Part shown: positions 19,593-24,801 of the stretch, piece after piece
How the letters are laid out: each line of letters opens with the position of its first letter
Numbering within the stretch: position 1 is the stretch's first letter
IMG/VR virus record: IMGVR_UViG_3300042400_000444
Strand: one strand, 5' to 3'
DNA: 64,000 bases
Source of the DNA: a virus
Taxonomy: Duplodnaviria; Heunggongvirae; Uroviricota; Caudoviricetes
The notes under the pieces: model-generated
What the model was told of the DNA's origin: nothing
The model's database searches: none
Seen by the model: only the letters and a program-made list of their open reading frames with translations
Translations under genes and position numbers: made by a program

Positions 19593-20384
19593 CTATAATA
19601 ACTTAGCTAATTTCTTACGTAATTTAGATTCTTGTATGGCTGTTATATGTGCTTCTGACTTTGGTTTACGCATCTTTTGTTTTGTTTCTTCTGACTTTGG
19701 TTTACGCATCTTTTGTTTTGTTTCTTCTGACATAGCACCTTTACTAACTCCTTTATTTGCTAAACTTAATTTAGCCTTATGCTCTGTGGATTTTGCAGTT
19801 ATTCCTTTACCACTACGATTAGCTGATATTTTAGTTGCAATAACTAATTTTTCTTCTAAAGTTTTTTCCTTTCTGTTAAGTTGTGCAATACGCATACGTT
19901 CTTTCTGTTCGAGTGTTCTTTTTTTACCTGTACAAGATGCACTGCGTTTATCTATAGTTTCTTGAGATTGTATTCTTCCTTTTCCTGCTGCAGATATTTT
20001 AGCTTTTTGTTCTGTAGACATGGTGCGACCTGTAAGTCGAGCAGAATGTATTTTACTAAATTCTTCTTTAAGATTGGCAAATACACGACTGGTAATTTTA
20101 GTAATATATCGTTCTTGTTGATGAGTGCGTGATACACGTCGCATACCATTTAATGCATATATCATTTTTTCACGATTGCTACCTGTTGTTATTTTAATTA
20201 ACAACCAATGACATATAAAATGCTCGCGCCCTGACAAATGAACAAGATTATTCTTGCTATCTTGTCCTCCGATTGATTTTGGTATGATGTGATGCTTTTC
20301 ACTGTAAGAAAGCGGTGTTGATCTCAATTGTGCATTACTGACAATTGCATCATACCACCGCTTGTATTTGTTTTCAATAAACAT
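19593..20384 (-). mobile_element. HNH homing endonuclease with NUMOD3 repeats
   Basis: NKYKRWY...EKHHIIPKSIGGQDSKNNLVHLSGREHFICHWLL, followed by MSTEQKAKISAA / SEETKQKM NUMOD3-like motifs; late box at 20403-20409 and AGGAG RBS. Confidence 0.85.
19653..19730. repeat. Perfect 36-nt tandem duplication (2 copies plus 6 nt)
   Basis: ttctgactttggtttacgcatcttttgttttgtttc at 19653-19688 and 19689-19724; encodes SEETKQKMRKPK twice. Confidence 0.9.
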
Positions 20385-20442: not shown

Positions 20443-20661
20443 TTAGAAAAACGGGAGGCCACTTTTTTGTGTTGTTTCCATATTATCTTTAATAATCTTA
20501 TTAATAATCTCTCTATCAATAATCCCTAGCATCATAGCATCGTCGTACGATAATGCACCTCGCATATACCAACATAATCTAAGTGCTTCGTCTTTAAAGG
20601 CTTTTGCGCCATTTTCCATCCTATCTAACTCAGCTTCGATTTCCTCGTTAGATAGGGCCAA
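20443..20661 (-). CDS. Small baseplate/tail assembly chaperone segment (gp51/GT-like), probably the -1 frameshift extension of the upstream gene
   Basis: Only a TTG start with no RBS; its frame is open back through the slippery site at 20673-20679; LCWYMRGALSYDDAMML motif. Confidence 0.6.
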   Translation of the reverse strand: MALSNEEIEAELDRMENGAKAFKDEALRLCWYMRGALSYDDAMMLGIIDREIINKIIKDNMETTQKSGLPFF

Positions 20662-20666
20662 AAGCC

Positions 20667-21512
20667 TTAGGCGAAAAAACTTGATTGATTAAACTCCACT
20701 TTAACTTTGTATTTCTTGTGGCATTCTGAACAAACTAATTCAACTGGTTCCATTGCGTTAGCAACTACAGTAGATTCAATTAATGCTTTAACTGATTCAT
20801 AAGTTTTTCTGTCAGTATTATTAAGAAAGTCTTGTATTAACATAGATTCTTCAACAACAGTACCTGTTTCAGTGGTGATAGATTGAATACACGAAACTAA
20901 TGTATTAATATTTAAATCGGCTAGTTTGTCAAACGATTCTTGGAATCTTGCTTTTTTATCTTCTTCGCTTAACTCGCTATTGGAAATAACATTCATTAAT
21001 TTTTGCTGTTCGAAGGATATTAATCCTATTCTATTTAAATCGTTGTATGTCTGTGGTTTAAGTTTGAATAGTAAACCATTTAACACATTTGATTCATTGT
21101 ATTGTTTCAATGGAGCTAAGTTATCTAGTACATTACGTAAATCAATAGTGTGTTCGTTATCTTCTCCACAATGAGTACATGTACTATTCATATCCATGCC
21201 TGAACCATAGCTAGCTAATCTAATAGCAATTAGTATAGAATCTAAATCAACTAATGGTATGCTCCAAGGGTCTCTAATAGATGGGCAGCAGCTAGCAATC
21301 ATATCACGCATACCAGCACCGTTCATTAAAGCATCTGGTGTCTTTAATAAAATTTCATCTTTAATAGTCATTGGATAAACGGGTATCTCACCAGTTAAGG
21401 ATATATCCAACGTTCCTTGAGGATAAAACTTACCACCACTAGGCAATTTCAAATAGATTGCTGGCTGTCTGAAATGATTAGCTAAAGGGTTGTTTGCAAT
21501 TGAATTACTCAT
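20667..21512 (-). CDS. gp26: Baseplate hub assembly/tail assembly chaperone, T4 gp26-like
   Basis: FRQPAIYLKLPSGGKFYP...PMTIKDEILLKTPDALMNG...DLDSILIAIRLASYG, with CxxC pairs (CTHC, CSEC); divergent from the tape measure gene. Confidence 0.7.
   Translation of the reverse strand: MSNSIANNPLANHFRQPAIYLKLPSGGKFYPQGTLDISLTGEIPVYPMTIKDEILLKTPDALMNGAGMRDMIASCCPSIRDPWSIPLVDLDSILIAIRLASYGSGMDMNSTCTHCGEDNEHTIDLRNVLDNLAPLKQYNESNVLNGLLFKLKPQTYNDLNRIGLISFEQQKLMNVISNSELSEEDKKARFQESFDKLADLNINTLVSCIQSITTETGTVVEESMLIQDFLNNTDRKTYESVKALIESTVVANAMEPVELVCSECHKKYKVKVEFNQSSFFA
20673..20679 (-). promoter_or_regulatory. -1 ribosomal frameshift slippery heptamer T TTT TTC
   Basis: AGT TTT TTC GCC TAA ends the gp26-like ORF. 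The heptamer is in the canonical X XXY YYZ phase, and the -1 frame reads CGC CTA AGG CTT TTG GCC into the 72-aa ORF. Confidence 0.7.
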
Positions 21513-21572
21513 ACGATTTTGAACTCCATAAATATACTATGTATTACTCTATATTTATTTGGAACAATAGCC

Positions 21573-24116
21573 ATGGCAATTAAAATCGAGATACCCGGAG
21601 TCGGGGAAGTTAGCGTAGAAGGTGCTGCACAAGAAGATACGATGCAGGCTATTCTTGCGGCTGTTAGTAAATCTGACAAAAGCAAGCAGGCAGAAGAGAA
21701 AAAACTTAAAAAAGCCAACGAAGATGCTGCAAAAGCTATGTCTAAGGTAAAGACAGGACTCGAAGACCTTGAAGACGAATTAGCCAGTGCCGCAGACGAA
21801 GCAAAAAGTTCATCGGGTAGAGGAGCTAAAGCAGTTGATGAATTAGCAGATGCTAGTAAACAAACTGTAAAAAATCTAGGTGGATTTGCCGCAACCTTGG
21901 CGTTAACTGCCACTAGTGTTGCGGTAGGCTTTGCTAAAAACTTTAATGAAAATGCCGCTAACCCAATTGCAGTTGGCGCTGCATTAATAAACACTGGTAT
22001 TGATTTATTAGGTGCTGGATTAAAGATTGGAGTTGAAGCAGTATCTGCATTTGGTGGGGCATTAGTTGGAGCTATTCCGTTAATCGGTGGTGGGTTGCAA
22101 CGTGGTGTCGATGGAATGGCAGCGGTTTCAAAGGAAATTATTGATCTTGGTACTACTGTATTAAAAGCTGGTAATGACATAATGTCAGCCGAATTCCAGA
22201 TGACTACCAAAGTTATGGCAGATATGGCTAAATCTGGAGCAAGTTTTGCTAACGGTATGACTGAAATGCGACAAATTGCAAACGAAAGTGGAATTGGTAT
22301 CGAACAATTTAGCAAAGTTATTGCTAATAGTCGCGATTCTATTACAGGCATGGGATTAAGTGCTACCGAAGCAACATACAGATTAAGCAAAGGAATGGGT
22401 GCGCTAACCACTACCATTGGTAAAAGTGGAAACAATTTACGTGGTGAAATGCTAGCCTTGGGGTACAGTTATACAGAACAAGGTGAAATAATGGCATCGT
22501 ATGCTGCACAGCAACGTGCAGCAGGTCGTTTAAAAAATATGACAGATACTGAATTAGCACAAGGAACTGCTCAATATGCTAAAGATTTAAAAGTACTTGC
22601 TGATATCACTGGTAAAGATGCTAAGAAAGCAATGGAAGATGCTAATAAGGTGGCATTAGAAGCAGATATTATGGGGCAGTTAAAACCAGAAGAAAAAGAA
22701 AAATTTATAAAAGCGTATGCATCTATGCCCGACTATGCTAAAAAAGGATTCTTGCAATATGTTTCATCTGGTGGACAAGCAATATCCGATGCTACAACTA
22801 ATGTATTAATGGTGCAGAATTCCAAAGTTGAAGATTTAATTAAAGGTACGTTTAATGGTATAAAAGATGCAAGTAAAACGTCCACGCAAGTACAAAATGA
22901 AACGTTAAAAAGAGCTAGTGAAGCAGGAGTAGCACAACGAGCATTAAGTGATGCACAAGGTAGCGCAATAGTACATGCACAACGAATGGGTGCCGTAACC
23001 GGTGGTTGGGCTGATGCAATAAATCAAGTAGCCGCTTCTGCACTATATAATGCTGATGCAGTTGATGCATCATCGGCTGCAGCAACAGCTAATGCCGAAA
23101 CACGCGATCCAGTTACAGCTGGATTTGTAAAAGCAACTGATGCAGTTGTTGCTTTTCAAGCACAAATGGCAAACTTAGCAACTGAGTTAATGCCAGAGTA
23201 TGCAACGATGATAGGTAAAACAACAGAAGAAACAGCAAAACTAGTAACAACAGCAATGGATTTTGCATCAGGAAAAATAACGCGAGAAGAATTTGCTAAA
23301 AGGTTAACATCTAACACCGAAGGGAAGAAAACAAAAATAGATATTCTTAAAGAGCAACGTGAAACAGCTGAAGATGCTCTTAAAGAATCGCAAGCTAAAC
23401 TGCCGAATAAAGCCAATCGAATAGCGAGTCGCGGATTTGGTTGGGATGCTAGCACAGAGAATTCTATAGCAGATTCATCAGCAGGACCCGAAGTTCAAAA
23501 AGAAATTGCAGAACGTAAAGCTGCTTTACAAAAAGCAAGAGAAATGGAAGATAAAGTAAGAGAAGCCAACGTCGCATATAAACATGGATTGCAAGATGTA
23601 CTTGATGGCTTGCGAAAACATGCAACAGCAGAAGAGAAACAAGCTGCTACTTTAGAATTTAATCGAAAATTCATCGAAAAATCACAAGCAGAAGATCCAA
23701 CTGGCAAAGCAAACATGCTCGATACTAAAACTTACATGCCGGTGAATATCAAAGGAACTGCTGAATATTTTAAATTGCCCACTGAGCCAACTCCAGTTAA
23801 CTCAACTCCAGGAACAAAAGTTCCAGCTAACTCAACTCCAGCTGAGCCAGCTCCAACAACAGGAGTACCGACTGCAAAAGAAACAGGTCAAGCAAAAGGC
23901 GGCGTTTCGGTTGGACCAACATCAGGATATCACGAATTATTGCACGGTACCGAAGCAGTTGTGCCGTTGCCGGATAACAAATCAATTCCAGTTAAACTAG
24001 ATAGTAGCTCGTTAAATGCTACATTGCATGAACATACTGGAATTTTAAATAATATACTTGCATCATTGAATAAAGGCAATAGCCTGTCGTCAGGAATTTT
24101 GCAGAACAGCTACTAA
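21573..24116 (+). CDS. Tape measure protein-like (probable start 21573, 847 aa)
   Basis: Long Ala/Lys/Glu-rich helical protein divergent from the chaperone gene, with a C-terminal AKGG...GYHELLHGTEAVVPLP motif. The track's 21519 start overlaps the promoter region, so MAIKIEIPG is preferred. Confidence 0.7.
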   Translation: MAIKIEIPGVGEVSVEGAAQEDTMQAILAAVSKSDKSKQAEEKKLKKANEDAAKAMSKVKTGLEDLEDELASAADEAKSSSGRGAKAVDELADASKQTVKNLGGFAATLALTATSVAVGFAKNFNENAANPIAVGAALINTGIDLLGAGLKIGVEAVSAFGGALVGAIPLIGGGLQRGVDGMAAVSKEIIDLGTTVLKAGNDIMSAEFQMTTKVMADMAKSGASFANGMTEMRQIANESGIGIEQFSKVIANSRDSITGMGLSATEATYRLSKGMGALTTTIGKSGNNLRGEMLALGYSYTEQGEIMASYAAQQRAAGRLKNMTDTELAQGTAQYAKDLKVLADITGKDAKKAMEDANKVALEADIMGQLKPEEKEKFIKAYASMPDYAKKGFLQYVSSGGQAISDATTNVLMVQNSKVEDLIKGTFNGIKDASKTSTQVQNETLKRASEAGVAQRALSDAQGSAIVHAQRMGAVTGGWADAINQVAASALYNADAVDASSAAATANAETRDPVTAGFVKATDAVVAFQAQMANLATELMPEYATMIGKTTEETAKLVTTAMDFASGKITREEFAKRLTSNTEGKKTKIDILKEQRETAEDALKESQAKLPNKANRIASRGFGWDASTENSIADSSAGPEVQKEIAERKAALQKAREMEDKVREANVAYKHGLQDVLDGLRKHATAEEKQAATLEFNRKFIEKSQAEDPTGKANMLDTKTYMPVNIKGTAEYFKLPTEPTPVNSTPGTKVPANSTPAEPAPTTGVPTAKETGQAKGGVSVGPTSGYHELLHGTEAVVPLPDNKSIPVKLDSSSLNATLHEHTGILNNILASLNKGNSLSSGILQNSY

Positions 24117-24150: not shown

Positions 24151-24801
24151 ATGTCTGACCAAATGGTAATGAATATTTGTAGTATATCAAAAAACAACAA
24201 GTATACTAAATGGTATACTAATATTATTGTAAATGCCACAAATAGAACTACCTTATTAGAAAAGTTTGAAGTACATCACATAGTTCCAAGATCATTAGGT
24301 GGTACAAATCACATTGATAATTTAGTTAAGCTAACAGTTAGAGAACATGTAATTTGCCATATATTATTGTGTAAAATGTTAGTAGGACAGCAAAAATATA
24401 AAATGTTACATGCTGTTAATATCATGTGTAATAAAAATGTTCGAGTCAATTCGCGGATAGTTGAAGGATTGCGCCAAGAACGAAAACAATCGTTATCGGG
24501 TGCAGGAAATCCAAATTTTGGTAAAACATGGGACGCTGAAACTAAACAAAAAATTGGAACAGCAATGAGAGGAAAAACTCATACAGCTAATACACGAGTA
24601 TTAATGTCACAAAAGCAACATGGTGAGAATAATCCGATGTTTGGTAAAAAGCAAGAAGTTAAGTCTGTTGAATTAATGTCGATTAAACAACAAGCTAATC
24701 GAAAATTAAAAATTAAATGTGCTACTTGTAATAAAGAAGTAGATAAACAAAACTATGCAAGATGGCATGGTATTAAGTGCAATAACACAGAAAAGGAATA
24801 A
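24151..24801 (+). mobile_element. HNH homing endonuclease with NUMOD3 repeats, upstream of the portal gene
   Basis: NKYTKWY...EVHHIVPRSLGGTNHIDNLVKLTVREHVICHILL; GNPNFGK, GKTHT and NNPMFGK motifs; TATAAATA at 24119-24126. Confidence 0.85.

Follow-up and report, generated by a model that had tools for sequence, protein, structure and literature searches.

A conserved slippery cassette suggests that T4-related phages make gp26-like and gp51-like hub assembly proteins from a single gene by −1 frameshifting

A −1 frameshift in the tail assembly chaperone gene is, to our knowledge, considered nearly universal among long-tailed phages, and we know of no equivalent in T4 and its relatives. Examples from contractile-tailed phages are E/E+E' of P2 and gp41/42 of Mu, and in Escherichia coli the dnaX gene uses a homopolymer-type heptamer and a downstream RNA structure to make two products, tau and gamma, at a fixed ratio. 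The conserved frameshift in tail assembly chaperone genes was reported by Xu, Hendrix and Duda in 2004 (Mol Cell 16:11, as cited in PMC9024508). Both gp26 and gp51 of T4 are listed among the chaperones of hub assembly; gp51 is essential for assembly yet absent from the particle, and the roles of both proteins remain unclear (PMC3004832). Here we analyze a 64,000-nucleotide (nt) stretch of DNA from a giant phage of the class Caudoviricetes (IMG/VR record IMGVR_UViG_3300042400_000444; hereafter, the window), in which a gene for a gp26-like baseplate-hub assembly protein carries a candidate slippery heptamer just ahead of its stop codon. With a probability of roughly 0.85, we propose that this gene is decoded in two ways, by a programmed −1 ribosomal frameshift at U UUU UUC that would yield a short and a long form of the hub assembly protein.

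The gp26-like open reading frame (ORF) occupies positions 20667..21512 of the minus strand and ends ...AAT CAA TCA AGT TTT TTC GCC TAA, with its UAA stop codon (20667..20669) one codon past the heptamer. A sequence-only reading of this DNA had pointed to an in-phase T TTT TTC near that stop, and the heptamer is indeed present at 20679-20673, in the X XXY YYZ phase, where AGU UUU UUC encodes S-F-F. The −1 frame is open, as that reading also stated, from the heptamer through to 20443. Read from the C of the heptamer, this extension (20443..20673) holds 76 codons (RLRLL...GLPFF) and a stop codon at 20445-20443, and the frame as a whole reads FF-RLRLLALSNEEI...WYMRGALSYDDAMML...GLPFF. The two computed products, a short form of 281 amino acids (aa; 31.4 kDa) and a long form of 356 aa (40.1 kDa), agree with the 281 and about 356 aa foreseen. 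Near its 5′ end, the −1 frame offers one start only, a TTG at 20661, again as described earlier; an AAGG stands 3 nt ahead of this TTG, and the first ATG of the frame lies 18 codons in.

The identity of the short form is clear from family searches. The 281-aa protein matches PF12322 (T4_baseplate) over residues 21-281, scoring 66.7 bits (gathering threshold, 24.5; E = 3.1e-18), and a PHROGs scan assigns it to phrog_150 (baseplate hub), both in keeping with the proposed likeness to T4 gp26. It contains two CxxC pairs, CTHC and CSEC, followed by ...SSFF; T4 gp26 and gp51 have their own CxxC pairs and FF/VF at the aligned positions. When the extension was scanned alone, neither PHROGs nor Pfam gave a match.

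We then compared the locus with its relatives. When a phage collection was searched with the locus by blastn, nothing matched; the closest isolates in a tblastn search are jumbo myophages (26-33% identity), among them the PA5oct group, Atu_ph07, Phosso, and the Rak2-like phages GAP32 and CBB, and relatives in IMG/VR reach 94% identity. Our survey of the cassette covered 34 loci from jumbo phages and IMG/VR (26-94% identity), 25 of them distinct, and the addition of P-SSM2, S-PM2, KVP40, and Aeh1 brings the number of distinct loci to 29. An in-phase T TTT TTC stands at the terminal FF motif of the PF12322 domain in 29/29 (as T TTT TTT in RsoM2USA), and in all loci the −1 frame is open through the heptamer and runs for 55-81 codons past the 0-frame stop (59-81 in the 25-locus set). 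The conservation on which the sequence-only reading had staked its case is therefore present, and the joint occurrence of an in-phase heptamer and an open −1 frame, recurring in every homologue examined, far exceeds chance.

The codons themselves are also fixed. Across 28 distinct loci, the codon before FF is NNT in 28/28, the first Phe codon is TTT in 28/28, and the second is TTC in 27/28; the respective backgrounds are 70%, 69%, and 31%, the TTC share being that of Phe codons elsewhere in these genes. The 0-frame stop varies in position from 0 to 11 codons after the heptamer. Conservation in the −1 frame sets in immediately behind the heptamer, ahead of any start codon in that frame, with R-x-R/K-L-L followed by a D/E-rich E-E-I segment. 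When 1.84 billion representatives were searched with a profile built from the extension, 566 proteins matched, mostly small ORFs.

These observations bear on the alternative that the locus holds two separate genes, in which case a free tail peptide of about 58-75 aa would be made either by termination-reinitiation after the UAA or from one of two starts, the TTG at 20661 and the ATG that lies 18 codons in, and would act in trans, the heptamer being mere FF codons. Annotators and gene callers do treat the small ORF in this way, an ATG overlaps or adjoins the stop in five lineages, and in the window the AAGG precedes the TTG. However, no start codon is conserved. The first ATG, GTG, or TTG of the −1 frame falls at codon 1, 4, 6, 12, 14, 15, 18, 27, or 47 (the last in RsoM2USA), and the frame of PA5oct contains no start codon anywhere. 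In Aeh1 the first start is at codon 19, and locus L011 has CTG in place of the TTG. A proper ATG and ribosome binding site for the small ORF, which would have spoken against the sequence-only reading, is thus not a general feature of the homologues. Because the first possible start differs among loci, gene callers assign the small ORF many different lengths (40-102 aa among the extension-profile matches). In addition, conservation of the −1 frame reaches upstream of all candidate starts, the heptamer keeps its synonymous positions fixed in spite of codon bias, and the tail is covalently joined to a PF12322 domain in T4 gp51 and in about 20 metagenomic clusters. We therefore regard a separately translated tail as improbable.

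Existing genome records give an uneven picture of the extension. It is conserved without an annotated gene in PA5oct (L003, 3838-4058) and RsoM2USA (L034, 2289-2537), and in other isolates it appears as a "hypothetical protein" with a variable start. A joined coding sequence is annotated in none of the records examined.

Downstream of the heptamer, the RNA is predicted to form a long-range helix of 10 base pairs (bp) on the minus strand, its 5′ arm AAGGCUUUUG at 20659..20668 pairing with the 3′ arm CAAAAGCCUU at 20597..20606. In the window, this helix begins 4 nt past the heptamer, spans 72 nt, and encloses a 10-bp inner hairpin (20620..20656, minus strand) that the minimum free energy (MFE) fold places between CCUAUCUAAC (20656-20647) and GUUAGAUAGG (20629-20620); the MFE fold of the 70 nt after the heptamer has −20.2 kcal/mol. 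Relatives carry lineage-specific hairpins at the position of the inner one. The outer helix is the RNAalifold consensus of 15 sequences, with 94% of alignment cells paired versus 28-70% for slid-partner controls, and compensatory changes occur in 4 of its 10 pairs, a result equaled by 1 of 500 shuffles. Atu_ph07 and Phosso keep the helix with altered letters (GGCUCUUUG/CAAAGAGCC). Codon shuffles reached the observed helix in 4/300 cases for the window and in 0-2/300 for most relatives; taken over the window's clade, Atu_ph07, Phosso, PA5oct, and L028, the counts were mostly 0-4/300 and at most 12/300. Among relatives the helix starts 3-6 nt past the heptamer, a modeled spacing that would fit a ribosomal stimulator. 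We saw no conserved upstream Shine-Dalgarno (SD)-like element at these loci.

The same T run could instead be read as a site of transcriptional slippage, with RNA polymerase adding one U in the U6 run so that the same 356-aa protein is encoded in a single frame. A conserved homopolymer run also suits transcriptional realignment, and the run is longer in some relatives, with nine T in RsoM2USA and eight in L024-L026. Moreover, because the predicted protein is identical, the comparative data do not separate polymerase from ribosomal slippage. A search for RNA data turned up one freshwater metatranscriptome, with 5% of the words searched for and in the form of contigs, in which slippage would not be visible. 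However, most lineages have no more than six U here, and C closes the run in 27/28; efficient slippage by bacterial polymerase generally needs longer runs. The covarying helix 3-6 nt downstream is likewise a classical ribosomal stimulator and has no role for a polymerase. On these grounds we think slippage during transcription unlikely to be the explanation, and we favor slippage by the ribosome.

If a frameshift supplies the long form, genomes with the heptamer would need only one gene of this family, and the distribution of PF12322 genes follows that pattern. PA5oct, Atu_ph07, GAP32, P-SSM2, S-PM2, KVP40, and Aeh1 each combine a single PF12322 gene with the heptamer, as does the complete 329-kb relative G002 (the record behind locus L010), whose protein is 80% identical to that of the window. 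Syn9 also has a single PF12322 gene (a gene count only; its heptamer was not read). T4, by contrast, has two, genes 26 and 51, both of which span the whole Pfam model, with 215.6 bits for gp26 and 177.5 bits for gp51.

Tails carried in frame were found among the best 150 extension-profile matches, about 20 of which are proteins of 319-351 aa with the tail in frame at the C-terminus and a single F at the junction. The two of these junctions that we read in DNA, CTC TTT CGT and GAA TTT AAA, are non-slippery, and in 2/2 contigs examined a tail-less PF12322 paralogue, ending a few codons past its NF motif, lies directly upstream of the in-frame long form. An AlphaFold2 model of one in-frame long form is confident across the domain and tail together (predicted local distance difference test score, pLDDT, 91; predicted template modeling score, pTM, 0.85). 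Because genomes with the heptamer have one PF12322 gene and T4 and two metagenomic lineages have a short and a long paralogue, both forms appear to be needed everywhere, whether they come from one slipping gene or from two genes. The cassette, its conservation, and this one-gene versus two-gene pattern are direct observations.

In these two-gene lineages, the tail-less short paralogue retains an in-phase T TTT TTA (as AAT TTT TTA) at its NF motif, located at about 1018-1024 in L037 and about 2770-2776 in L040. In L040, the −1 frame closes within one codon after it. This sequence could be a relic of a slip site or a site that is still active.

The in-frame long forms, together with the error-prone nature of homopolymer runs, might suggest an assembly or sequencing error in the T run, with a true in-frame ORF of 356 aa, or a decaying gene whose tail is a dead remnant, but we consider both very unlikely, since the same T6C, frame relation, and nearby 0-frame stop occur in independently sequenced isolates and metagenomes, protein-level conservation of the tail extends over 566 database clusters, and the in-frame long forms have non-slippery junctions and a separate short paralogue.

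The relation to the two T4 proteins can be followed through their C-termini. T4 gp26 ends ...KEFFELL, which matches the end of the short form, and T4 gp51 runs on as VFKLLVNPDEIFTFY...MIPAERGFVLKLIEK (VFKLLVNPDEI...), colinear with FFRLRLLALSNEEI...LGIIDREIINKIIKD of the extension. The sequence-only reading had suggested a profile comparison of the extension with gp51, and this comparison supports homology of the tails: a tail-only hhalign of 45 extensions against 15 gp51 tails scored 24.1 (P = 1.4e-4), a value that none of 100 column shuffles reached (9.9 ± 1.9, maximum 17), and the reversed control scored 11.0. The extension profile compared by hhalign with the single T4 gp26 sequence was non-significant. 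A full-length hhalign of the long-form and gp51 alignments matched only a CxxC to the wrong CxxC, and we set it aside as uninformative on the tails. Among precomputed Pfam hits, relatives of T4 gp51 show a second family, PF28602, that is not listed on the metagenomic in-frame long forms.

Because the FF of T4 gp26 is encoded by TTC TTT and gene 25 abuts gene 26, T4 gp26 has neither a slip site nor an extension. We had begun from the suggestion that gp26 and gp51 correspond to G and T of the lambda pair. The first half of this stands, as gp26 is the counterpart of the short form. The second half does not: since gp51 is a full PF12322 paralogue plus the tail, it is the counterpart of the long form, that is, of GT rather than T. 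The T part on its own is represented only by the small "gp51" ORFs of cyanophages and KVP40.

Those small ORFs have attracted notice before. In its treatment of gp51, Sullivan et al. 2010 (PMC3037559) describes cyanophage and marine vibriophage "gp51" proteins that lack the first ~200 residues and match only the C-terminus of T4 gp51; what is noted there for the cyanophages is a truncation, not a frameshift. The KVP40 record makes the same link between the C-terminus of gp51 and the small ORF that follows gp26. We find that the single PF12322 gene of P-SSM2, S-PM2, and KVP40 ends xxT TTT TTC Gxx TAA in each case, with the small "gp51" in the −1 frame, 2-3 codons past the heptamer.

Aeh1 provided an out-of-sample prediction, and the prediction held. 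The phage is reported, in the same treatment, to lack gp51 (PMC3037559). Its single gp26 gene ends GAT TTT TTC GAC TGA, and an unannotated gap of 166 nt behind it (L049, 1036-1201, minus strand) holds a −1 extension of 58 codons with the gp51 tail pattern ...TTPFERAIYRTLF..., and a helix starts 3 nt downstream of the heptamer.

Taken as a ribosomal mechanism, this arrangement would work as follows. Most ribosomes would read AGU UUU UUC GCC and stop at UAA, giving the 281-aa short form, the counterpart of T4 gp26. Some would pause over U UUU UUC, owing to the helix 4 nt downstream, slip back by one base through a tandem slip of the P- and A-site tRNAs (UUU UUC to UUU UUU), read the 76 codons of the −1 frame, and produce the 356-aa long form, whose tail would match the one at the C-terminus of T4 gp51; the long form would be the minor and the short form the major product. 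Both forms, at a ratio set by the slip frequency, would be required for assembly of the central hub and tape-measure complex that nucleates the tail tube, a role suggested by T4 genetics. Lineages without the slip would encode the two forms as two paralogous genes. The actual slippage of ribosomes, the ratio of the forms, and the chaperone role are what we infer from the observed cassette.

Several points weigh against this proposal. The cassette is known from sequence alone, in this phage and its relatives, and the slippery heptamers best studied in bacteria do not include U UUU UUC. The helix is weak or non-significant by the codon-shuffle test in the Rak2-like group and some others. In Atu_ph07, Phosso, P-SSM2, S-PM2, and KVP40, an ATG follows the heptamer within 1-3 codons, which makes a separately started small protein possible there. 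Counts such as 29/29 are not counts of independent events, because the compared sequences share kinship. An hhalign of the extension against the single T4 gp51 sequence is non-significant on its own, and the mass-spectrometry table for CBB virions lists nothing for the small ORF.

The surroundings of the gene are consistent with a function in tail assembly. The sequence-only reading placed it beside, and divergent from, a tape measure gene, and its neighbor is in fact a tape-measure-like gene on the plus strand (21573..24116), whose 848-aa product, counted from MAIKIEIPG, is Ala/Gly-rich with long helices. MAIKIEIPG at 21573 is probably the real start of this ORF. The product matched no Pfam or PHROGs family, and in an Atlas feature search the nearest named clusters were tape measure families at 0.93, which we take as a lead only. 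This protein is a likely client of the chaperone pair. Beyond the 3′ end of its gene follow an HNH gene and then a gp20-type portal gene, and the order of gp26-like gene, divergent gene for a long virion protein, and portal gene is also found in PA5oct, Phosso, and CBB.

Family scans identified two genes for HNH/NUMOD3 homing endonucleases (phrog_655), one at 19593-20384 on the minus strand and the other at 24151-24801 on the plus strand, which together bracket the hub-chaperone and tape-measure module. The gene at 24151-24801 looks like a mobile insertion, because the tape-measure-like and portal genes adjoin in PA5oct, Phosso, and CBB. Within the 3′ part of the minus-strand gene, a perfect tandem repeat of 36 nt (19652-19731; 2.2 copies, 100% match) duplicates 12 codons in frame. 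A TTG-started ORF of 308 aa on the minus strand (21509-22435), antisense to the tape-measure-like gene and with no family match, was taken as spurious; it is probably an artifact of Ala/Gly-rich composition on the opposite strand.

We found no report of this frameshift in the open-access literature, and the word is absent from papers on related jumbo phages. Judged from the sequences, phages of the T4 group seem to use a variant of their own of the G/GT strategy known from lambda. A broader reading is that gp26/gp51 is the T4 superfamily's non-homologous counterpart of G/GT, and that the slip is ancestral and predominant, from 500-kb jumbo phages to marine cyanophages, with T4 and a few lineages having later duplicated the gene; we consider the chances of this evenly balanced. 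If it is true, T4, long seen as the exception to a near-universal tail-chaperone frameshift, would be the derived case.

A slip that makes gp26-like and gp51-like proteins from one gene would explain why T4 has two paralogues, why the "gp51" of cyanophages and vibriophages is a mere stump of 55-60 aa, and why gp51 seems to be absent from Aeh1. It would also put right the records of many phage genomes, which now either call the tail a "hypothetical protein" or leave it unannotated, and it would be a clean case from nature in which recoding and gene duplication can stand in for each other. The proposal is directly testable in phages that can be cultivated, such as PA5oct, KVP40, S-PM2, and CBB.

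How closely, then, does the locus resemble the systems already described? With T4 gp26 (208 aa) and gp51 (249 aa), the hub assembly chaperone and catalyst of that phage's baseplate, it shares the family PF12322, and in T4, as in the window, the orientation is divergent, gene 26 pointing away from the operon that contains gene 29, which encodes the tape measure. T4 differs in having two full-length paralogous genes and no slippery heptamer, in the tail of gp51, which is ~28 residues shorter, and in the internal in-frame start, 26', of gene 26. The small "gp51" ORFs of P-SSM2, S-PM2, and KVP40 show an identical arrangement of one PF12322 gene each, an identical in-phase T TTT TTC, and a −1 frame, although records list each as a gene in its own right that starts at an ATG 2-3 codons past the heptamer, and their tails are shorter (57-60 aa) and nearer to that of T4 gp51.

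As for lambda gpG/gpGT, the sequence-only reading had called the frameshift one of the G/GT type, and in mechanism and logic this stands, whereas the searches gave no support, in sequence or in fold, for kinship with the lambda-type chaperones. Pfam and PHROGs scans of both ORFs returned no tail assembly chaperone family, giving PF12322, phrog_150, and a weak match to the unnamed phrog_13792 (E = 6.8e-4). Foldseek found no match in the PDB at E ≤ 0.001 for the AlphaFold2 model of the in-frame long form, VIA-align wide gave that model only generic helical-hairpin matches (Z ≤ 8.2, residues 121-205), and PDB sequence searches with gp51 and the long-form profile yielded nothing meaningful. The window's protein is also twice as large, with two CxxC pairs; its gene is adjacent to but divergent from the tape-measure-like gene, as in PA5oct, Phosso, and CBB, rather than immediately upstream and co-directional; and its heptamer is U UUU UUC, in place of G GGA AAG. 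The likeness lies in a −1 slip, here predicted, close to the 3′ end of a gene for tail assembly that neighbors the tape measure gene, and in nested short and long proteins that share their N-terminal part and differ by the tail only. With dnaX, the locus shares a homopolymer-type heptamer, a downstream RNA structure, and two (here predicted) products of one gene; in dnaX, an upstream SD-like element contributes and the shifted product is the shorter one, whereas at the gp26-like gene the shifted product would be the longer.

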